In this document: in pieces, positions 4,068 through 38,192 of the stretch
Position numbering within the stretch: the stretch's first letter is position 1
Layout of the letters: each line of letters opens with the position of its first letter
From: Candidatus Curtissbacteria bacterium
GTDB taxonomy: Bacteria; Patescibacteriota; Microgenomatia; Curtissbacterales; GWA2-41-24
Length of the DNA stretch: 61,779 nucleotides
Assembly: GCA_030647775.1 (NCBI GenBank)
Contig: JAUSJC010000004.1
Coordinates: 1-61,779 of the forward strand
Reading direction: 5' to 3'
The notes under the pieces: generated by a model
What the model was told of the DNA's origin: nothing
Databases searched by the model: none
What the model saw: only the letters and a program-made list of their open reading frames with translations
Made by a program: the position numbers and the translations under genes

Positions 4068-5073
4068 TCTTCATCGCGCGGCGGACTTCATCTAAAGTTT
4101 GTTGGGCTTCGAGCCTTGCCCTTGCCGTTCCCTCTTTAAGAATCGTTTCGATTAGCTCCGGTTTCTTTTCAAACTCCGCGCGGATTGCCCTTATCGGTTC
4201 CAAAAACTTTTCCAAGACTTCTACCAAATATTCTTTTACTTCGACATCGCCAACAGTTCCCTCGCGATACCGCCTCTTTAAATCCTCGATCTTCTTGGGG
4301 TCACCATGCTCGGCAAACGCGTCGAGGTAAACAAATACCGGGTTGCCTTCTACCTCCCCCGGCTCATCCCCATGGACGCGTTTCGGGTCCGTAAACATTC
4401 CCATGACTTTCTTTTTAACTTCTTCTTTAGAATCGGAAAGATTGATTACATTCCCCAAACTCTTACTCATTTTTGCTTTTCCATCCGTTCCCGGCAAAGT
4501 ACCGATATCGCCAGGAATCAAAGCTTCCGGAATTGGAAAAACCTGCCTGCCGGCAGGCAGGCCTTCACCGTACAAGCGGTTAAACTCGCGGGCGATCTCC
4601 CTCGTCACTTCTATATGAGAAGCTTGGTCTTTACCGACGGGTACCAAATTAGCCTTTACCATCAAAATATCGGCGCTTTGCAAAACCGGGTAACCTAAAA
4701 GCCCGTACGAAGGCGTTTGGATCTGCGCGTCGCGCATCACATCTTTTAACGTCGGCATCTTCTCGAGCCGTGGCACGGTCACCAAATTACCCAAAATCAC
4801 GGCCAGTTCCGCCACTTCCGGTATTTGCGACTGGATATAGATCGTGCACTTTGCCGGGTCTATCCCCACCGAAAGATAATCCAAAACCAGCTGATGGATG
4901 CTATCTTTAAGTTCCCCTGTCTTTTCCGGCCGCGTTGTTAGTGTATGAAGATCCGCTATTATAAAAAAAGCTTCATACTCATCCTGCAGCCTTATTCTGT
5001 TTTTAAGCGAGCCGACGTAGTGACCTAAATGTAATCGTCCTGTGGGACGATCTCCAGTCAATATACGTTTCAT
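4048..5073 (-). CDS. trpS: Tryptophan--tRNA ligase
   Basis: HIGH-type motif (TGRLHLGHY) and KMSKS. Start placed at MKRILTGD rather than the longer ORF to 5106. Confidence 0.9.
   Translation of the reverse strand: MKRILTGDRPTGRLHLGHYVGSLKNRIRLQDEYEAFFIIADLHTLTTRPEKTGELKDSIHQLVLDYLSVGIDPAKCTIYIQSQIPEVAELAVILGNLVTVPRLEKMPTLKDVMRDAQIQTPSYGLLGYPVLQSADILMVKANLVPVGKDQASHIEVTREIAREFNRLYGEGLPAGRQVFPIPEALIPGDIGTLPGTDGKAKMSKSLGNVINLSDSKEEVKKKVMGMFTDPKRVHGDEPGEVEGNPVFVYLDAFAEHGDPKKIEDLKRRYREGTVGDVEVKEYLVEVLEKFLEPIRAIRAEFEKKPELIETILKEGTARARLEAQQTLDEVRRAMKIDYFSQ
4542..4561. repeat. GC palindrome cctgcctgccggcaggcagg inside trpS
   Basis: Perfect 20-nt palindrome encoding LPAGRQ. About 7 extra residues versus the RYG-ELFTIPEA spacing of B. 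subtilis TrpRS (from memory). Confidence 0.6.
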
Positions 5074-6294: not shown

Positions 6295-6320
6295 AGGGAT
6301 CGAACCTATGGCCTTGGCGT

Positions 6321-6557
6321 TATTTTTCGAGCTTGTCGAGAAAAACAAGCTCTCTTATATCAGCATCGTAAACATTTCTGTGCCAGCGACAGGAATCGAA
6401 CCTGTGACCTTAGCGTTATGAGTGCTACGCTCTAACCGACTGAGCTACGCTGGCTTATTAATGTCTACGATCTGATATAGGTCAGCAAAAGCTGACGTAT
6501 ACAACAGAGGGCAAAGCCCTGCTGTTATATATCAGATTCGCCGAAGACGAAGGCTCA
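6321..6557 (-). other. Intervening sequence 2 (237 nt) at anticodon-loop position 37/38, containing a whole tRNA gene
   Basis: Bounded by CTCATA| and |A-CGCCA. Contains tRNA 6381-6454 flanked by about 20-nt inverted repeats, plus a second ATATCAG-type element (6472-6535). Confidence 0.5.
6381..6454 (-). tRNA. tRNA-Met(CAU), elongator-like (Ile2/lysidine type not excluded)
   Basis: GCCAGCG TA GCTC AGTCGGTTA GAGC G TAGCA CTCATAA CGCTA AGGTC ACAGG TTCGATT CCTGT CGCTGGC A. Confidence 0.85.
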
Positions 6558-6784: not shown

Positions 6785-6910
6785 ATATGCGATTTTGCCT
6801 TTATCTCAAATTCTTGAAAAGAATTTGAAAAACGAGGAACAGCTTTAATCTTTAGAACTGATTCTCTTTTGAAAGAAATCAGTTAAGATTAAAAGCTCGT
6901 TCCGAGTTAG

Positions 6911-6981
6911 TAGCGGGGGCGGGAGTCGAACCCACTTCTGGAGATTATGAGCCTCCCGAGATACCGTTTCTCCACCCCGCG
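6911..6981 (-). tRNA. tRNA(CAU), initiator-like
   Basis: CGCGGGG TG GAGA AACGGTA TCTC G GGAGG CTCATAA TCTCC AGAA GTGGG TTCGACT CCCGC CCCCGCT A. It has a C1xU72 mismatch and A11:U24, but lacks the full GGG/CCC anticodon stem. Confidence 0.8.
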
Positions 6982-10378: not shown

Positions 10379-10473
10379 TTGGGCTTTTGGACGATTGGGT
10401 TATTGGGACTTAAACATCCTAACAACCTACCGACCGAATAGCCTAATAACCTAAAGGCCTAATAAACCTAAAG

Positions 10474-10983: not shown

Positions 10984-11095
10984 ACAATGTCATCCTGAAC
11001 TCGATTCAGGATCTGTAACTGATTCAGGATCTAATCTAAACGGATTCCGAAATATACAGGGCCATGCGACCTAAAGGTCTAAAGTTCGGAATGAC
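10974..11095. repeat. Composite palindromic elements (family B GTCATCCTGAAC-type plus a GTCATTCCGAAC-type unit)
   Basis: gtcatcctgaac appears twice, gattcaggatc appears twice, followed by the inverted copy of the 34679-34731 element. Confidence 0.7.
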
Positions 11096-11108
11096 AACAG
11101 GGGAATAA

Positions 11109-11480: not shown

Positions 11481-11547
11481 TTAGGCGATTAGGCTATTAG
11501 GAAAATACCTAATTACCCAACAACCTAAAAACCTAATAACCAAACCG

Positions 11548-13116
11548 ATGAGTATCCTGGAAAATATCGAAAAACAAATAGATAAGGCGAAATTCACCTC
11601 GATCCCAAAAAACGTCGGCAAAATCATTGAAATTGGCGACGGTGTCGCTCGCGTTTCCGGCCTCTCCGATGTTTCTGCCTCGGAAATTGTCACTTTCCCC
11701 CTCCGGACCAGAGGCCCCTCTGGGCCAGCGGCTCACGGCATCACCGGCCTTGCGCTAAATTTGGAAGAAGACAGTGTCGGCGTCATCATTTTTGGTGATT
11801 GGGCAAAACTTAAAGAAGGCGATGAAGTCCAAACTACCGGAAGAATCCTGGAAATTCCTGTCGGTGATGCTCTTATAGGCAGGGTTGTCGATGCTCTTGG
11901 CAAACCGGTTGACGGCAAAGGGCCCATCAAGGCAACCACGCACTACCCGGCCGAAAAAATTGCCCCCGGCGTCATCTTTCGCCAACCCGTTAATGTGCCT
12001 TTGCAAACCGGTATCAAAGCCATCGATTCTATGATTCCTATTGGCCGCGGCCAAAGGGAACTTATAATCGGCGACCGCGGCCTTGGTAAAACCGCCATTT
12101 GTCTGGATACCATCATTAACCAAAAAGGCAAAAAAGTTATTTGTATTTATGTCGCCATCGGCCAAAAAACCAGCAAAATTGCCCAGGTTGTCGCCATTCT
12201 GGAAAAACACAAAGCCCTGGACCACACCATCGTTGTGGCCGCATCCGCTTCCGATTCGGCTAGCCAGCAGTATGTTGCCCCCTACGCCGGCTGCGCTATC
12301 GGAGAATATTTTATGGACCAGGGGAAAGACGCCTTGGTCATCTATGACGATTTGACCAAACACGCCTGGGCTTACCGCCAGATTTCTCTTCTTCTTAAAC
12401 GTCCTTCCGGCCGCGAAGCTTACCCTGGTGACGTTTTCTACCTTCATTCCCGTCTGTTGGAACGCGCGGCCCGTCTTGACGAAAAACACGGCGGCGGCTC
12501 CCTAACCGCTCTTCCGATTATCGAAACCCAAGCCGGTGATGTTTCCGCCTACATTCCCACTAATGTTATTTCCATTACCGACGGCCAAATCTTCTTGGAA
12601 GCCGATCTTTTCAACGCCGGCAACCGCCCGGCCATCAATGCCGGCATTTCCGTTTCCCGGGTTGGCGGCAATGCCCAAACAAAAATGATGAAAAAAGTCG
12701 CCGGCGGCCTCCGCTTAGACCTTGCCCAGTACAGGTCTCTGGCCGCCTTTACCCAGTTTGGTTCCGACCTTGATGCCACAACTCTGGCAAAACTCGAGCG
12801 CGGTAAAAGAATCGTCGAAATTTTAAAGCAGCCCCAATACCAACCAATTGATATTACTGCTCAAACCGTTATCTTCTGGTCTGCGGCAAACGGATACTTC
12901 GATTCTATTGCGGTCACCGAAGTTTCTAGGTTTGAAGAGCGGATTATTTCTGCTCTTGCCACCAACAAAAAACTAAAAGATCATCTGGACGACAAAAAAG
13001 AACTCGACGATTTTGCCGTCAAAGAACTCGAAAAGATGCTTTCTTCCCTTTCCGGCAAAATGCCCAAAGTCGAAACTCAAGAGAAACCAAAAAGGAGGTC
13101 AAAAACAAAAAAATAA
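11548..13116 (+). CDS. atpA: F0F1 ATP synthase subunit alpha
   Basis: GDRGLGKT Walker A, full-length alpha architecture. About 10 extra residues before [10 protein letters not shown]. Confidence 0.95.
11699..11732. repeat. 34-nt hairpin element ccctccggaccagaggcccctctgggccagcggc inside atpA
   Basis: Identical except for 1 nt to 27970-28003. Encodes [12 protein letters not shown] here. Confidence 0.75.
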
Positions 13117-14322: not shown

Positions 14323-15843
<1,521 letters not shown>

Positions 15844-19135: not shown

Positions 19136-19148
19136 ATAAGGGCAAGTG

Positions 19149-19220
19149 TGGGCCTGGTAGGTATCGAACCTACGACATCCACCTTATAAGAGTGGCGCTC
19201 TACCACTGAGCTACAGGCCC
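19149..19220 (-). tRNA. tRNA-Ile(UAU)
   Basis: GGGCCTG TA GCTC AGTGGTA GAGC G CCACT CTTATAA GGTGG ATGTC GTAGG TTCGATA CCTAC CAGGCCC A. The body is Ile-like. Confidence 0.85.
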
Positions 19221-27819: not shown

Positions 27820-29130
27820 TTAATTTACAAGCTGATTCAAATCAAAATTCGTATCCGCAAGCTTATCGACCAAAAAAGAAACATCAACTTTGCCCTTAAC
27901 CGCGGCCGTTAGTGGCGCAACCTCCCCGGCACTATTAATAACCGTTGCCCCGACAATTCTTTTGGTGTTGCCCTCCGGGCCAGAGGCCCCTCTGGGCCAG
28001 CGGCCAATCGTTTTAATATAAATTTGCGTCATCTTGCCGGACTCTACCGATCCGCGGCTAATTACTTCGTCAGCAAACGCCATGTCTGTTACCCCGATGA
28101 AAGAATATGTCCCTTCAAAAAAACTGTCGGAGTAAGACGACGCCGTCTCGTAAATAGTCCTCTCGCCAACCATCCCTTTTGCCGCCGCCTGCCCCTGCGA
28201 CGTTGCATTTGCCCAATTCCCCATCATATGTTGTCTTCCAAAAATCACGTCGGCAAATTCGGCACAATCCCCAGCGGCATAGACATCTTTCACATTCGTC
28301 TCTAAGTATTCGTTGGTTAAAATTCCGCGGTTTGTCTTGACCCCCGCCTTGGCAATCCATTCCAAATCCACCTTGATACCTATACCGACACCCACAACAC
28401 CACATTCAAAGCGTTTGCCGGATTTGGTAACTACAGTAGCCACTTTATTGTTTAGGGTCGGACCCTTGAACAGGGTCCGACCCTGTTCAAATTCGAATCT
28501 CTCCACTTCTTCCCCGGTTAAAACTTTAACTCCGTTTTTTGCTAGAACACTTACCATCACCTTACTTGAATCAGGACCTAGTCTATTCGCCCAAAAGTAC
28601 GGCTCTTTTACCAAAATCGTTACTTCCCCAACATTATTCGCCTTAAAACAGGTGGCAAAATCAAGGCTAATAAGCCCGCCGCCGACAATTACCCCGGCTT
28701 TGGCAGAACTTGCCGCCTTGATAACCTTGTCTGTATCTTCCAAAGTTCTGAAATATAAAATGTTCTCAAGCTGGCTGCCCGCCGCATCAAGCCGGATTAC
28801 CCTTCCGCCAATGGAGATAAGCAACTTGCCGTATTGAATCTCTTCCCCGTCAGAAAGAGTAATCAAATGATCAGCACAATTCAGCCCGGTGGCTTTGGTT
28901 TTTTTAAGAAGCTCGATGTTCTTTTGCTTGTACCAGTCGGGAGTTTTTAGAAAAACCTGTTCCCTTTTTATTTTGTTTCGGCTGTAAAATGGCAGTAAAA
29001 CCCGCGAATACTCCTCTTCTTCGTCTGTAACAATTGTGATTGAACCCTCACCATTGCGTGACCGGATCACTTCTGCTGCCGTTGTCCCGGCCGCGCTTCC
29101 GCCAACAATTAAATAGTCAACATTCCTCAT
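27820..29130 (-). CDS. FAD/NAD(P)-dependent pyridine nucleotide-disulfide oxidoreductase family (ferredoxin-reductase-like)
   Basis: DYLIVGGSAAG and VIVGGGLISLD dinucleotide folds, AAGDCAEF. No redox Cys in the Nox/CoADR position (SRVLLPFY). Confidence 0.8.
   Translation of the reverse strand: MRNVDYLIVGGSAAGTTAAEVIRSRNGEGSITIVTDEEEEYSRVLLPFYSRNKIKREQVFLKTPDWYKQKNIELLKKTKATGLNCADHLITLSDGEEIQYGKLLISIGGRVIRLDAAGSQLENILYFRTLEDTDKVIKAASSAKAGVIVGGGLISLDFATCFKANNVGEVTILVKEPYFWANRLGPDSSKVMVSVLAKNGVKVLTGEEVERFEFEQGRTLFKGPTLNNKVATVVTKSGKRFECGVVGVGIGIKVDLEWIAKAGVKTNRGILTNEYLETNVKDVYAAGDCAEFADVIFGRQHMMGNWANATSQGQAAAKGMVGERTIYETASSYSDSFFEGTYSFIGVTDMAFADEVISRGSVESGKMTQIYIKTIGRWPRGASGPEGNTKRIVGATVINSAGEVAPLTAAVKGKVDVSFLVDKLADTNFDLNQLVN
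27970..28003. repeat. 34-nt hairpin element ccctccgggccagaggcccctctgggccagcggc inside the oxidoreductase gene
   Basis: Same element as 11699-11732 and same plus-strand orientation, but the host gene is on the other strand. Encodes [12 protein letters not shown]. Confidence 0.75.
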
Positions 29131-30733: not shown

Positions 30734-32077
30734 TTAAATTCGAATTCTCCTTCCATTATTGTGACTATATTCGGATACATTCGGACTAACAATTCGGGTC
30801 AATTTGGGTTTAAATATGGAAATTACTTTTTCTATACCCGCAATGAATTTATCGACTTCTTCTTTTGTGTTGTAAATATAAAAACTGACGCGGGCCGCCG
30901 ACTCTATCCCCAAAAAATTCATAAGGGGTTGGGCGCAGTGGTGGCCGGACCTTATCGCAATTCCCTCCGCATCCAGAATCGATGCCACGTCGTGGGCATG
31001 GATTGGACCAACGTTAAAAGATATAACACCCGCTCTATTTGTCATCCCGAACTCGTTTCGGGATCTAGATTCTGAATCAAGTTCAGAATGACGAGGTAGG
31101 GGTCCATAAATCTCCACTTCCGGGATTGCTGACAATTTCTTGATTGCGTATCGAGTCAACTCAACTTCATGTTCTCTCACCTTATCCATTCCGATTTTCT
31201 CCAAATATTCTACTGCCGCCATAAGCCCCACTGCCGCCGCCGCATCGGGAGTCCCCGCTTCAAATTTCCAAGGCAACTCATTCCAACTGGTTCCACTAAG
31301 AGAAACTTTAGAAATCATGTCTCCCCCAAATAAAAACGGCGGCATTTTCTCCAAAAGCTCCCTTCTTCCCCACAAAACTCCAATCCCTGTTGGCCCCAGC
31401 ATTTTATGCCCCGTAAAAACGTAGAAATCGCAGCCTATTTTGGCAATATCAACTTTCATATGCGGCACAGCTTGCGCTCCATCAACAATAACTACCGCTT
31501 TTGGTGATAGTCGATGAGCGATAGTCGATAGTCGTCTAACATCATTGACCGTCCCCAAAACATTCGAAACATGGAAAAAGGAGACCAGTTTCGTCCGAGA
31601 TGTAATTGCCTTCTTAAATGCTACTGGATCAACCTCCCCGTTTTCATCAACCGGCACCACTTTCAAAACCGCGCCGTTTTCGCGAGCCAGCTGCTGCCAA
31701 ACCACAAAGTTGGAGTGATGTTCGGCAACCGTAACTACAATCTCATCATTTTTGGAAATATTGTTTCTTCCCCAGCTATAAGCAATAAGATTTAAGGCTT
31801 CTGTCGCGTTTTTTACAAAGATTATCTCACCCGTATCTTTCACCCCCACAAAATTTCCGACAACTTTTCTTGCCAGTTCATACTCTTCAGTTGCTTCCTG
31901 AGAAAGTGTATGGACTCCGCGGTGAACATTGGCGTTATGTTTGGTGTAATAGTGCACCAGCATATCCAAAACCGCCTTGGGTTTCTGGCTCGTCGCCGCA
32001 TTATCAAGATAAACCAATGGTTTCCCATTTATTTTCCTACTTAAGATTGGAAAATCTTGCCTAATTTTGTCCATCAT
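30734..32077 (-). CDS. sufS: Cysteine desulfurase SufS
   Basis: HHSN, FTGHKMLGPTGIG (PLP Lys), RSGHHCAQP active-site Cys. Has a repeat-derived insert and a C-terminal tail. Confidence 0.9.
   Translation of the reverse strand: MMDKIRQDFPILSRKINGKPLVYLDNAATSQKPKAVLDMLVHYYTKHNANVHRGVHTLSQEATEEYELARKVVGNFVGVKDTGEIIFVKNATEALNLIAYSWGRNNISKNDEIVVTVAEHHSNFVVWQQLARENGAVLKVVPVDENGEVDPVAFKKAITSRTKLVSFFHVSNVLGTVNDVRRLSTIAHRLSPKAVVIVDGAQAVPHMKVDIAKIGCDFYVFTGHKMLGPTGIGVLWGRRELLEKMPPFLFGGDMISKVSLSGTSWNELPWKFEAGTPDAAAAVGLMAAVEYLEKIGMDKVREHEVELTRYAIKKLSAIPEVEIYGPLPRHSELDSESRSRNEFGMTNRAGVISFNVGPIHAHDVASILDAEGIAIRSGHHCAQPLMNFLGIESAARVSFYIYNTKEEVDKFIAGIEKVISIFKPKLTRIVSPNVSEYSHNNGRRIRI
31041..31092. repeat. Family B double hairpin inside sufS
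   Basis: gtcatcccgaactcgtttcgggatc + tagattctgaatcaagttcagaatgac. Encodes RHSELDSESRSRNEFGMT. Confidence 0.65.
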
Positions 32078-32089
32078 ATATTTTTAGTT

Positions 32090-32173
32090 GTCATTGCGAG
32101 CGAGTGAAACGAGCGCGGCAATCTCTTTTTAGATTGCTTCGTCATTCTGCAATGCAGAACTCCTCGCAATGAC
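32090..32173. repeat. Family A element between sufD and sufS
   Basis: gtcattgcgagcgag...cctcgcaatgac, with an internal gtcattctgcaatgcagaa hairpin. Confidence 0.7.
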
Positions 32174-32205: not shown

Positions 32206-32925
32206 TCATTCTTCTTGCCCCTCGTAGCTCTCCTTTGGAGAGCGAAGTGGGGTCTGCTCCATTATTTTCTCCCTCATCGGCCCGATAAACCCCTGAATGA
32301 TTAACTTTTCTGCGCTATCCCTCGAAAGCCCCCTGCTCATCAAATAAAAAATCATTTCTTCATCCACCTTTCCAATTGTCGCCGCGTGTCCGGCTTTAAC
32401 ATCCGGCTCCAAAATCTCCAACGCCGGGGTATCGTCTCCCATTTTGGCATCGTCAAAAAGCAAAGCGTCAGATCTTAAATACGCATCTGCTCCTTTAGCC
32501 CCTTTTTCAATTTTGACGTTCCCCTTGAACGCAAAAGTCGACTTGCCCCGTAAAACCGCGCGGACATTCACATTCGATTTCGTGTTCGGCGCCGCGTGGG
32601 TTATATAAATCTCGAGTGATCGATCATCGACCTTTCCTTTATCCGCCAAAGATCGCTCTTTGGCACGTGTTCGAATAGAACCTGAAGTGCCAAAGTAAGA
32701 TCGGGCGGGCAAAACCAACCCCACAACCTCCACACTAGAATTTTCCCCCGCCAAAACCACTTCCACTCTGTCATTCTGCAATCCGCTAACCCTGTCATTC
32801 TGGAGCGAAGCGATAGAATCTTTACGTCCAGATCCTATCGGTCGTTTCACTCCCTCCAGGACGACACTTGAGTTATCCATCAGCACCGTTATCACCCTTT
32901 TCTCGTCTTTTTTTAAAGTAATCAT
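32206..32925 (-). CDS. sufD: SufD-like Fe-S assembly protein (short form)
   Basis: C-terminal beta-helix region. [21 protein letters not shown] parallels Suf[22 protein letters not shown]. Confidence 0.7.
   Translation of the reverse strand: MITLKKDEKRVITVLMDNSSVVLEGVKRPIGSGRKDSIASLQNDRVSGLQNDRVEVVLAGENSSVEVVGLVLPARSYFGTSGSIRTRAKERSLADKGKVDDRSLEIYITHAAPNTKSNVNVRAVLRGKSTFAFKGNVKIEKGAKGADAYLRSDALLFDDAKMGDDTPALEILEPDVKAGHAATIGKVDEEMIFYLMSRGLSRDSAEKLIIQGFIGPMREKIMEQTPLRSPKESYEGQEE
32769..32835. repeat. Family B-like element inside sufD
   Basis: gtcattctgcaat...gtcattctggagcgaagcgatagaatc encodes DSIASLQNDRVSGLQNDRV. Confidence 0.55.
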
Positions 32926-34609: not shown

Positions 34610-34678
34610 AATTAAACTTCTCGATTCGTTTCACTCACTCGAAGAATATTGTTCGAGCGCAGTCGAGAACTACTTCTT

Positions 34679-34791
34679 GTCATTCCGAACCCTAGACCTT
34701 TAGGTCGCATGGCACTGTATATTTCGGAATCTAGATCCTGAATCAAGCCTTCGAGGCCGTGAGCCCTCAGGCCGAATCGGTTCAGGATGAC
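34679..34791. repeat. GTCATTCCGAAC-type element plus a family B element, overlapping the sufC stop
   Basis: 34679-34731 matches the inverted 11043-11095. 34734-34791 is the inverted near-copy of 35235-35292. Confidence 0.7.
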
Positions 34792-35669
34792 ATAGTAGTA
34801 AATGCCCCGTATCCTTTCTCTTCAACCTTTTGCGCTAAACCCGCTTTGCCGGATTTAATAATCTGCCCGTCTACCATCACATGCACAAAATCCGGCTTTA
34901 GATATTTAAGGATACGGGCGTAGTGAGTTATAAGTATGATTGATGATTGTCGATTGTTGATTGTAAATTGTTTAATCGCAGAAGCAACTAATTTTAAACC
35001 ATCAACGTCCAAACCAGAATCAATCTCATCCAAAATCACTAGTTTCGGTTTCAAAGCCATCATCTGCAAAATCTCATTTCGCTTTTTTTCTCCACCGGAA
35101 AATCCCTCATTGAGTGAACGTCTTAAAAAGTCCTCCGGAAGTTTAAGTTCCGACATATACTTTTTGAGTTCGTCACGGAATTGCTTAGCACTGTCATTGC
35201 GAGGAGTCACAAACGACGAAGCAATCCCGCCATCGTCATCCTGAACCGATTCGGCCTGAGGGCTCACGGCCTCGAAGGCTTGATTCAGGATCTGTTTCCC
35301 CGTTTTGAGATTGCTTCTCCGTCGATTGACGGCTCGCAATGACAATAGGGAGTTTGACGTTTTCGCTTTTCTAAGAAAATTAAAAACCGAAACTCCCGGA
35401 ACTTCCACCGGGTGCTGGAATCCCAAAAAAATTCCCAATTTCGCCCGCTTATCCGGCGCTAACTTTGTAATGTCCTGACTATTCACTATGCATTTTCCAC
35501 TAACCACTTTATAATTCGGGTGCCCCGCGATAACCTGCGCCAAAGTCGACTTTCCGCTTCCATTCGGCCCCATGAGCACGTGAATCTGGCCACTACCAAC
35601 TTCCAGATCCACGCCCTTCAAGATTTCTTTATCACTGACACTTGCTTTAAGATTCTTAATCTTTAGCAT
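34782..35669 (-). CDS. sufC: Fe-S cluster assembly ATPase SufC
   Basis: GPNGSGKST, FSGGEKKRNEILQ, LDEIDSGLD, THY. Start placed at MLKIKNL after a GGAGG. About 50 extra residues in the helical subdomain. Confidence 0.9.
   Translation of the reverse strand: MLKIKNLKASVSDKEILKGVDLEVGSGQIHVLMGPNGSGKSTLAQVIAGHPNYKVVSGKCIVNSQDITKLAPDKRAKLGIFLGFQHPVEVPGVSVFNFLRKAKTSNSLLSLRAVNRRRSNLKTGKQILNQAFEAVSPQAESVQDDDGGIASSFVTPRNDSAKQFRDELKKYMSELKLPEDFLRRSLNEGFSGGEKKRNEILQMMALKPKLVILDEIDSGLDVDGLKLVASAIKQFTINNRQSSIILITHYARILKYLKPDFVHVMVDGQIIKSGKAGLAQKVEEKGYGAFTTMSS
35193..35343. repeat. Nested insertion inside sufC: family A element carrying a family B element (35235-35292)
   Basis: gtcattgcgagg...[gtcatcctgaac...gattcaggatc]...gctcgcaatgac. 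Translated through as SLRAVNRRRSNL...GGIASSFVTPRND. Confidence 0.8.
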
Positions 35670-36844: not shown

Positions 36845-37843
36845 TTATTCCTGTGCCTCGAGCCAGCGTTCGGCCTCCATTGCCGCCTGGCATCCAAATC
36901 CTGCTGCGGTTACTGCCTGCTTATAGTGGTAATCATGCACATCCCCCGCCACAAAAACACCATCAACCGATGTCATCATCCCGTAGGCATCCGAAGGTCC
37001 TGAGCTTGCTATAGCAGTGAGCTTGTCGAACTGTCGAACTGTCGAAGGATTACCTTTAATCATTTTTTTAACGTATCCCTTTTCATCCAGCTCCAACTGG
37101 CCCTTAAAAATCTTCGTCATCGGCGAGTGACCAATCGCCAAAAACATTCCATCGATGGGCATCTCCTGCTCTTTTCCGTCTTTGACATTCTTGATCTTCA
37201 CTCCAATCACCTTATCCTGTCCTAAAACATCGACAACCACGGTATTGGTGATAAAAGAAATCTTGGCATTTTTCTTGGCGCGCGCAAGCATTATTTTGGA
37301 TGCCCGAAACTCATCGCGCCGGTGAATTATCGTCACATCGGTTGCAAACTTGGTTAAGGTCAAAGCCTCCTCCATCGCGCTATCTCCGCCGCCGACGACA
37401 ATCACCTTTTTATCCTTGAAGAAAAACGCGTCGCAAGGCGCACACGAAGAAACGCCATGACCAATTAACCTTTGCTCGTTTGGTAAACCCAGCCAGTTAG
37501 TCTCGGCTCCGGTTGCGATAATCACAGCTTTTGATTGATATGTCTTATCCCCTGCCGTAACTGAAAATGGCCTTTGAGAAAAATTAACAGCGCTAACTTC
37601 CAAATCTAAAATCTCTGCCCCAAACCGCTCGGCCTGGTCGCGGAACTTCTTCATCAGATCCGGTCCCAAAATTCCTTCGGGGAATCCCGGATAGTTTTCC
37701 ACATCGGTTGTCAGCATCAACTGCCCACCCCATTTACCTCCGCCTGTTAAAACCAAAGGCGCCAAGTTTGCCCGCGCATTGTAAAGCGCCGCGGTTAACC
37801 CGGCAGGACCACTTCCTATAATAATGACATTGTAAGATTTCAT
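36845..37843 (-). CDS. trxB: Thioredoxin-disulfide reductase
   Basis: IIGSGPAG, CAPCD redox site, VVGGGDSAMEEA, VFVAGDV. Has an extra segment encoded by gtcgaactgtcgaactgtcgaa repeats. Confidence 0.9.
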   Translation of the reverse strand: MKSYNVIIIGSGPAGLTAALYNARANLAPLVLTGGGKWGGQLMLTTDVENYPGFPEGILGPDLMKKFRDQAERFGAEILDLEVSAVNFSQRPFSVTAGDKTYQSKAVIIATGAETNWLGLPNEQRLIGHGVSSCAPCDAFFFKDKKVIVVGGGDSAMEEALTLTKFATDVTIIHRRDEFRASKIMLARAKKNAKISFITNTVVVDVLGQDKVIGVKIKNVKDGKEQEMPIDGMFLAIGHSPMTKIFKGQLELDEKGYVKKMIKGNPSTVRQFDKLTAIASSGPSDAYGMMTSVDGVFVAGDVHDYHYKQAVTAAGFGCQAAMEAERWLEAQE

Positions 37844-38192
37844 AAAAACCCGCTTGCCGAGAGAATAAGCTCTCTTTTTCTCGACCTGATCGAGAATCCA
37901 TACATAGATCCTGAATCAAGTTCAGGATGACATTACTTCTCGCTTCACTCGAAGAATACTATTATATCCTTTATTTGAAATATTGTTTTCATTTTATGAA
38001 ACGTCTTAAATTCATTTAAAATTAAAAACTAAAAATTTCAAATTTTTGGAAAATTTTGTCGGTGTATAAAATATTTACCCGGATTTCAGCCTTTTTCGAG
38101 CAAAAATAGATCACTATTGACGGGTTTCAGTACGCCCGTCATAAAATGTTCGTCGTCTAGACCCGCAATCGAGTTTACTCGATGAGGATCGC

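Follow-up and report, generated by a model that had tools for sequence, protein, structure and literature searches.

Results

Repeat pair and its host genes

The window, by which we mean the whole stretch of 61,779 nt analysed here (contig JAUSJC010000004.1, assembly GCA_030647775.1, Candidatus Curtissbacteria bacterium), contains two copies of a 34-nt palindromic repeat. One copy lies within atpA, the gene for the alpha subunit of F1 ATP synthase, and the other within a gene for an FAD/NAD(P) oxidoreductase (Pyr_redox_2, Pyr_redox). Those homologues of the two proteins that carry source names all belong to Candidatus Curtissbacteria, a group of the candidate phyla radiation (CPR). The features of the pair were as follows.

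11548..13116, plus strand: atpA (F1 alpha), host of copy 1; intact, 522 aa
11699..11732, plus strand: 34-nt repeat, copy 1; made up of two 15-nt palindromic units in tandem
11700-11714 and 11717-11731, plus strand: the units of copy 1, palindromic 15-mers CCTCCGGACCAGAGG and CCTCTGGGCCAGCGG
11701..11733, plus strand: net 33-nt insertion in atpA, CTCCGG...GCGGCT, 11 residues, relative to the empty site in L004
27820..29130, minus strand: FAD/NAD(P) oxidoreductase gene, host of copy 2; intact, 436 aa
27971..28004, plus strand: 34-nt repeat, copy 2; oriented like copy 1 and antisense to the gene in which it lies
27973..28005, minus strand: net 33-nt insertion in the oxidoreductase gene, 11 residues, relative to the empty site in L017

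The degenerate 34-mer CCCTCCGGRCCAGAGGCCCCTCTGGGCCAGCGGC had exactly two matches in the window, 11699-11732 and 27971-28004, each on the plus strand, and gave 0 matches in 100 dinucleotide-preserving shuffles of the window. The two copies were identical at 33/34 positions and were grouped by a repeat search as family D18 with 97% identity. The original prediction, made from the letters of the window, had described such a pair in the same plus-strand orientation, and the pattern match and the repeat search agreed with it, except that its coordinates for the second copy (27970-28003) were one base off. It had further described a dispersed repeat that is read in opposite senses in two unrelated genes with damage to neither frame, and both copies were indeed found inside long intact open reading frames (ORFs). 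Cross-assembly of one locus was excluded, as the flanks differ, the ORFs are intact and independent assemblies of other samples (L016, L005-L009) share the insert. The G+C content of the window was 44%, compared to 76-82% in the in-frame inserts and about 80% in the element.

In-frame insertion relative to empty sites

Empty sites were read at the DNA level in four loci (L004, L017, L032 and L033). The closest relative, GCA_041643115.1, is syntenic with the window at about 85% nucleotide identity. Its empty atpA site (L004) reads TTT CCC^CAC in the DNA alignment, and the empty oxidoreductase site in L017 reads GAT GGC^ATT. The boundary of the insert was ambiguous by 1 nt in atpA (alternative 11702-11734) and by 3 nt in the oxidoreductase gene (alternative 27970-28002), the latter because GGC flanks both ends. 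No target-site duplication (TSD) was found in the filled-versus-empty comparisons of the atpA and oxidoreductase sites, and the junctions showed only 1-3 nt of C/G identity between the target and the ends of the element.

At the protein level, the closest AtpA, P0001 (93% identity over the core), and P0002 were without the insert in an alignment of 120 AtpA homologues, and so were the closest oxidoreductases P0122-P0126 (73-79%). All solved alpha subunits that were matched also lacked the 11 residues. About ten extra residues relative to the E. coli alpha subunit had been predicted for AtpA; the extra segment is real and its length is 11. Conservation of the segment in distant alpha subunits had been named as a finding that would speak against an insertion, and it was missing from the matched solved structures as well as from the closest homologues. 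Judged by these sequence comparisons, both window copies are recent, lineage-specific net 33-nt in-frame insertions and not conserved parts of their hosts.

A net gain of 33 nt with an open ORF was seen at the DNA level in atpA, at both oxidoreductase sites, in tgt and in secF. At least three frames were used: LRxRGxSGPxx in the window atpA, the oxidoreductase genes of the window and L016, and the tgt gene of L001; PSGPEAxRAGG in five AtpAs and secF; and RRPGGPLARR at the second oxidoreductase site in L018. As the element is nearly palindromic, its two opposite-sense readings in the window use frames that are equivalent by symmetry, and the resulting 11-residue peptides are almost the same. 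In one AtpA, P0045, the copy is decaying (PSEPDTHRAGG).

The element was stop-free in all six frames, but so were 53% of its shuffles, compared to 7.5% of ordinary window 34-mers. Openness in both orientations had been taken as the hallmark of selection for coding compatibility. This part of the original prediction did not hold, since the openness follows from the high G+C content and gives no evidence of design or selection on the element. Its alternative of filtering was in better agreement with the data: the net length was always 33 nt and the insert always lay in a disordered loop between beta strands, which supports filtering after insertion.

Recurrence at the same sites in other lineages

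The 11-residue insert was present at the site of the window AtpA in five more AtpAs (P0016, P0045, P0047, P0053 and P0073). In a neighbour-joining tree the six insert-bearing AtpAs fell into six clades with insert-free sisters, and the nearest sequences of each were insert-free, the other insert-bearing AtpAs being more distant. DNA of four of the insert-bearing atpA genes and of two insert-free sisters gave one identical insertion point, TTY CCN^CAY. In L008 and L009, which belong to different clades, the codon immediately 5' of the insert had changed from Pro to His (CCC to CAC). The odd F-H-P junction of these two loci was considered as a different junction and resolved to the same insertion point plus the Pro-to-His change. 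The variant atpA inserts were 91-97% identical to each other, compared to 38-47% identity at flanking third codon positions, and the insert of the window atpA is another variant, which occupies the same bond and is read in a different frame. Similarly, the oxidoreductase P0127 (L016), with 61% protein identity to that of the window, carried a same-site insert identical at 35/36 nt, whereas five closer relatives were without it.

Among 121 sequences the AtpA core showed insertions at two sites only, the recurrence site being filled by this family in 6/6 cases and the other site by other families in 3/3. The roughly 160 kb of protein-anchored Curtissbacteria DNA contained copies in the two query genes only. 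The occupancy of the atpA bond was 5%, compared to zero in an estimated 15-20 kb of intergenic DNA (taking about 10% as non-coding), which implies a hot spot of several hundred-fold that random insertion followed by selection cannot yield. The near identity of the inserts next to saturated flanks likewise points to a strong target hot spot. The sequences thus argue for independent gain of the element at the same sites in six AtpA and two oxidoreductase lineages.

In some of the atp loci additional features were observed. In the Curtissbacteria atp operon of L007 (3440-4748 and 7395-8721) atpD appears interrupted or partly called, and a reverse transcriptase with bAvd, a pair like that of diversity-generating retroelements, lies nearby. 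L008 has a 23S_rRNA_IVP gene between atpG and atpD (4473-4835).

Predicted structure of the inserted loops

The model of the oxidoreductase had a mean predicted local distance difference test score (pLDDT) of 90.1 and a predicted template modelling score (pTM) of 0.86. The only segments under pLDDT 50 were residues 218-225 and 379-385, which are the two hairpin inserts of this protein, each located between strands. The AtpA insert (residues 54-62) was likewise under pLDDT 50 and lay between strands E46-50 and E65-70, the N-terminal barrel being modelled at pLDDT 73-87. In these models each 33-nt insert adds an 11-residue flexible loop at the turn between two beta strands.

Other in-frame hairpin insertions in the window

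The original prediction was right that the repeat is dispersed; neither the recurrence at an identical site nor other in-frame hairpin insertions had been part of it. A protein-by-protein comparison over about 37 kb of synteny (L004 and L017) gave 11 in-frame insertions in the window versus two small ones in the relative. Their sizes were 21 nt in the trpS-like gene, 33 nt in atpA, 102 nt in atpD, 36 and 33 nt in the oxidoreductase gene, 18 and 30 nt in the sufS-like gene, 96 and 66 nt in the SufD-like gene, 150 nt in sufC and 51 nt in the trxB-like gene. The insertions other than the two 33-nt copies were located as follows.

4537..4557, minus strand: 21-nt perfect-palindrome insertion (CCTGCCTGCCGGCAGGCAGG, PAGRQVF) in tRNA-synt_1b (TrpRS-like), compared to the relative
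14479..14580, plus strand: 102-nt GC-rich hairpin insertion in atpD (ATP synthase beta), 34 aa, missing in L004 and L005
28453..28488, minus strand: 36-nt hairpin insertion (EQGRTLFKGPTL) in the same oxidoreductase gene, unrelated to the 34-mer; residues 218-225
31040..31102, minus strand: composite hairpin insertion in the sufS-like cysteine desulfurase gene (PLPRHS ... SRSRNEFGMT), compared to the relative
32644..32709, minus strand: 66-nt hairpin insertion in the SufD-like gene, compared to the relative
32773..32868, minus strand: 96-nt hairpin insertion in the SufD-like gene, compared to the relative
35202..35351, minus strand: 150-nt nested hairpin insertion in sufC, 50 aa, built from window families D4 and I1
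36980..37030, minus strand: 51-nt insertion in the thioredoxin-reductase-like gene, 17 aa, compared to the relative

Most of the 11 insertions fold as strong hairpins, and the protein sequence flanking them is highly conserved. At the sequence level, the genome carries at least nine further in-frame hairpin insertions in housekeeping genes besides the two 33-nt copies. Many, the atpD insert in the N-terminal barrel among them, are hairpins that occur only once in the window. The EQGRTLFKGPTL insert consists of two tandem AGGGTCSGACCCT palindromes. The trpS insert turns a pre-existing CCTGCCGG into a perfect palindrome, and its peptide LPAGRQ recurs as an insert in the AtpA of P0060. The repeat families that build the sufC insert are also found between genes in the window. 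The oxidoreductase family has several insertion hot spots, which are filled in different lineages by peptides typical of other hairpin repeats.

Other intergenic hairpin families, of the GTCATCCTGAAC...GTTCAGGATGAC type and the TGTCATTGCGAG...GCAATC type, were scattered in the window (10986-11097, 34677-34791, 35235-35293 and 37906-37934; also 1094-1130, 32089-32125 and 35192-35228). Among them is a 59-nt perfect inverted repeat that has one arm within sufC and the other just downstream of it. Directly upstream of the atpF and atpA starts there are runs of an 8-nt periodic repeat containing CCTAA (10418-10470 and 11500-11544), and the close relative has no spacer in these places. The window also encodes a tRNA-Ile with the anticodon TAT (UAU; 19148-19220, minus strand), an uncommon bacterial route to read AUA, and two tRNA-Met(CAT) genes (6380-6454 and 6910-6981). 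A tRNA-like 3' fragment at 6295-6323 was called by neither ARAGORN nor Rfam.

Anatomy of the element and its family in other genomes

Scans of genome, metagenome and viral-contig collections yielded 34 full-length copies, which were aligned. Their common plan is a CCCTCC tag followed by GGCC-AGA-GGCCC, a variable centre of 1-5 nt, and GGGCC-GGC-GGCC. The 34-mer can alternatively be read as two tandem 15-nt palindromic units of the form CCNCYGG-N-CCRGNGG, spaced by 17 nt in the window type and by 16 nt in the variant type (CCTCCGGGCCAGAGG-C-CCNCCGGGCCGGYGG). It is an imperfect palindrome centred on CCAGAGG-CC-CCTCTGG with a core of 7 bp (CCAGAGG/CCTCTGG), and the symmetry of the second unit is kept via A..T in L005, G..C in L007 and T..A in L011 and L012. 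The element is oriented: a profile of the copies scored 33-41 bits on the forward strand versus 5-10 bits on the reverse strand. An Rfam scan of the window and seven loci gave tRNAs and a chance miRNA-like match only. The idea that the element marks a cluster or avoidance of restriction sites (GGCC, CCGG) was dropped, as the window showed no notable avoidance.

The family extends over CPR Curtissbacteria and Levybacteria, metagenome-assembled genomes (MAGs) of other groups and Mu-like phage contigs, and its members lie both inside and between genes. Element inserts were also present in independent NCBI, ENA, JGI and Logan assemblies. In-frame copies were found in a metagenomic TGT gene (L001), in SecD/SecF of Levybacteria (L010), at the second oxidoreductase site, where the orientation is the opposite one (L018), in a protein with a Mu portal domain and in an AAA_22 ATPase encoded by a viral-collection contig. 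Intergenic copies occur in the metagenomic L003 and in L011, L013 and L014. Apart from L003, the sources of copies between genes were Levybacteria, MAGs of Thermodesulfobacteriota and Anaerolineae (one each), and a contig of CPR-like character that is binned as Gammaproteobacteria. The element was detected in 13 viral-contig loci, some of them multi-copy, with an 18-nt pattern, which was needed since a 25-nt variant pattern had no match in the viral contigs. The 24-kb Mu-like contig IMGVR_UViG_3300044800_000429 (L019 and L029), with a Mu transposase and a Mu portal, has at least seven copies or variants on one strand, one of them in frame within the portal-domain protein.

The window-type pattern had no match in GTDB genomes, and cultured phages and plasmids gave chance-level matches in GC-rich genomes only. 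A 41-aa chimeric query against a set of 5.8 billion proteins gave no candidates; an 11-column profile reached only E ~23-200 locally. One match, at L002 2195-2216, was rejected as a chance match in the conserved QRPLWASTGTKNP motif of a GC-rich transaldolase, which calls for caution in pattern searches.

Some of the intergenic copies lie in a larger context. L003 (2070-2235) and L011 (7255-7440), two unrelated contigs, share a structured unit of about 165-190 nt that resembles a miniature inverted-repeat transposable element (MITE), with 18-nt terminal inverted repeats (GTTTACCCCGTTAGAAAT) and the hairpin element at the tip of the inner stem. In L011 the two units of the element flank a 34-nt inner nested hairpin, which could be a longer form. 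In two organisms, copies (L013 2156-2276 and L014 4285-4315) abut GGAGG and the start codon of genes for TasA/camelysin-like secreted proteins, where they may have a role in the 5' untranslated region; the two copies in L013 come after a small GIY-YIG nuclease gene (1894-2148).

Discussion

Proposed explanation

We consider it likely that the element is a small, non-autonomous, GC-rich repeat that was recently inserted in frame and is moved in trans with a target preference; the descriptive part is the surest portion of this explanation. The element would persist in genes as a selfish insertion, being a multiple of three nucleotides long, stop-free and placed at a permissive turn, and the retained peptide would be a flexible loop rich in Gly, Pro, Ser, Ala and Arg. 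Its stop-free character is a by-product of its GC-richness. The target preference would be strong, and the element would be moved by a host or mobile-element enzyme that acts in trans on the DNA hairpin. Ectopic template switching would be the main alternative to the likeliest candidate, which may be a single-strand HUH/Y1 (IS200/RAYT-like) activity. Such an activity would fit because of the tag-plus-hairpin plan, the lack of a TSD, the co-orientation of copies and a truncated Y1_Tnp-like ORF beside one copy. In the window, 2/2 copies are on one DNA strand though their host genes are on opposite strands, and the GC skew is uniformly negative. Taken by itself, a Y1-type mechanism is on balance unlikely to be the mover. 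The recurrence at an exact spot hints at targeted insertion, and a homing-like, structure- or guide-directed insertion of a cargo-less 33-34-nt hairpin at exact bonds in CPR, with the flanks not co-converted, is a possible though doubtful extension.

Several observations weigh against the proposed explanation. With 2 copies in 62 kb, both intragenic, and no further copy in some 160 kb of related DNA, the element is not abundant, which sets it apart from REP and RPE families of the classical type. The empty sites share no conserved target motif and have no target hairpin that would account for the hot spot. No mobilising enzyme (RAYT, GIY-YIG, other nuclease or transposase) was found among the scanned window ORFs or the annotated syntenic genes. 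The truncated ORF at ~2440 in L003 had Y1_Tnp as its only Pfam match, which is weak (E=0.11, below the cut-off) and from another organism. The co-orientation in viral contigs (7/7, 4/5, 2/3 and 1/2) involves small numbers and is confounded with gene orientation. As to structure, the original prediction had labelled the element a hairpin; it is an imperfect palindrome, but its folding energy was no better than that of GC- and composition-matched shuffles (z +0.26 to -1.56). The pairs given by RNAalifold were all invariant among the aligned copies and lend no covariation support, and the search patterns had fixed the 5' half of the alignment, so that it is subject to ascertainment bias. Finally, the AtpA model was poor overall (pLDDT 58.8), and translation of the inserts is inferred from sequence.

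Alternative explanations

An element of this kind could also be copied from another genomic location with no transposase at all, through ectopic template switching or through repair synthesis that is primed by microhomology where a fork has stalled or a break has occurred, the palindrome bounding the tract. This is in line with the lack of a TSD and of a transposase in the window, with the unique hairpins among the window inserts and with the trpS insert, which extends a sequence that was already there to a perfect palindrome. The junctions point the same way: the CCC of the atpA target continues the CCCTCC of the element, the GCC/GGC of the target continues ...GCGGCC in the oxidoreductase gene and tgt, and the boundaries shift by 1-3 nt against the element core between events with the net gain still 33. 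However, microhomology of 1-3 nt is common by chance at GC-rich ends, near-identity across very distant genomes and phages would be easier with element-specific machinery, and template switching by itself leaves the repeated use of one atpA bond unaccounted for, so that we regard it as on balance unlikely. If instead an insert-bearing allele had spread laterally by homologous recombination (allelic homing or gene conversion), the identical position, frame and orientation in six AtpA and two oxidoreductase lineages would need no independent insertions, and the Pro-to-His change shared by L008 and L009 might have travelled with it. Against this, the flanks next to the inserts are lineage-specific, L009 matching its insert-free sister L033 and L008 matching L032. 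With flank third positions at 38-47% identity a transferred tract could exceed the insert by a few nucleotides only, and at that bond the window carries another variant, read in another frame. Lateral spread is for these reasons improbable.

A role in cis, as an mRNA stabiliser, a pause or processing site in the atp transcript or a protein-binding palindrome, would make the peptide incidental. It would agree with a DNA sequence conserved far beyond neighbouring synonymous sites, with the second-unit symmetry kept through three different base pairs, and with the intergenic copies directly upstream of start codons with GGAGG (L013, L014), some followed by T-rich tracts. However, atpA, the oxidoreductase gene, tgt, secF and the phage genes are unrelated hosts with unrelated insertion positions, and the element is found both along and against transcription; the closest relatives manage without the element, the P0045 copy is decaying and there is no T run after either window copy, which makes such a role quite improbable. 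Ancient insertion in a common ancestor followed by many precise losses would account for the single bond in all six AtpAs, and palindromes are prone to deletion. It would nevertheless require dozens of precise in-frame losses versus six gains on the tree, and the inserts are 91-97% identical next to saturated neutral flanks, the window variant is in another frame, and identical copies occur in other genes and other phyla. We consider it very improbable. An assembly artefact or technical sequence could come to mind for a short GC-rich sequence that appears almost unchanged at two places and also in assemblies that are unrelated. Here the flanks are different and unique with both ORFs intact, the net length is a multiple of three in five coding sites, the other coding copies checked keep the ORF open, the inserts recur in the independent assemblies of four sources and there is natural variation in the loop and at compensating positions; the chance of an artefact is close to negligible.

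Comparison with known repeats

We regard the proposed mobile repeat as a new miniature form of coding palindromic repeat, and the closest known kind is that of the Rickettsia palindromic elements (RPEs). Coding palindromic repeats have counted as rare and curious, their textbook example being those of Rickettsia. As summarised in PMC10969869 and PMC6649704, RPEs (Ogata et al. 2000 Science 290:347; 2002 Genome Res 12:808) are palindromic repeats of ~100-150 bp encoding 30-50 residues, which lie in frame in many housekeeping genes, give a fold-compatible peptide, decay and are read as selfish DNA. The element described here is likewise a dispersed palindromic repeat in frame in unrelated coding genes with the ORF kept, its peptide lies in what are predicted to be fold-compatible loops (low pLDDT, between strands), and at least one copy decays (P0045). 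It differs in its size of 33 nt and 11 residues, in its use of three frames, in its CPR host and in a family that also reaches phage contigs and other phyla. The likeness concerns placement and palindromy. To our knowledge, no account of RPEs describes orthologous genes that were hit repeatedly and independently at one identical bond, and we know of no smaller element of this kind.

Repetitive extragenic palindromic (REP) sequences and their doublets (REPINs), moved by REP-associated tyrosine transposases (RAYTs; Y1, IS200-like), are GC-rich imperfect palindromes of 20-40 nt, often in doublets, which are extragenic, lineage-specific and present in tens to hundreds of copies (PMC3116915, PMC3337134, PMC3733652); their end tag is a conserved GTAG or CGTC tetranucleotide (PMC3733652). 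The present element resembles them as an imperfect palindrome in doublet form (two 15-nt units) with a short conserved tag, no TSD, no autonomy and a possible strand or orientation bias. Unlike REPs, it has CCCTCC as its tag, occurs in 2 copies per 61.8 kb, both intragenic, and shares its sequence across phyla; no RAYT was found among the scanned window ORFs. IS200/IS605 elements insert 3' of a fixed tetra- or pentanucleotide, whereas no such target was found 5' of the element, the 5' flanks of about 20 copies sharing no motif. Bacterial MITEs have terminal inverted repeats and a TSD and are usually 50-500 bp long (PMC10969869). The element is similarly short, non-autonomous, structured and able to form in-frame fusions, but it has no TSD, is only 33-34 nt long and has no identified parent insertion sequence.

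Suyama, Lathe and Bork reportedly described palindromic repeats with coding potential in Methanocaldococcus jannaschii (MJRE) in FEBS Lett in 2005. These too are small palindromic repeats of which a few lie inside genes with no loss of the ORF, but the host is archaeal, the elements are longer, intragenic copies are rare exceptions and no same-site recurrence is known to have been reported. Organelles also have comparable hairpin repeats, such as the GC clusters of yeast mitochondria. Others are the repetitive hairpin elements (RHEs) of sponge mitochondria (PMC2800124) and the coding palindromes of Nematomorpha mitochondria (PMC6649704). In these cases, too, GC-rich hairpins with no encoded enzyme invade AT-richer genomes and are sometimes coding in frame; the genomes are organellar, however, and their repeats differ from the element in sequence and size. 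Those of Nematomorpha are long and perfect and arise locally, whereas the element occurs in dispersed copies. Full-text literature searches aimed at such elements in CPR/Patescibacteria found no description.

Significance

The recurrence at exact sites is the most interesting part of these findings. It makes target choice by enzyme-less hairpin repeats testable, with TTY CCN^CAY in atpA as the target and a defined substrate. The scale is also of interest, as at least 11 such insertions were found in about 37 kb of core genes in a streamlined, uncultivated CPR genome. Such numbers point to hairpin insertion as a major cause of differences in protein length within this CPR group, which matters practically for the annotation, phylogenomics and structure prediction of CPR proteins. 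If the homing-like reading is true, the essential proteins of CPR bacteria would be undergoing remodelling by a wave of in-frame hairpin insertions.

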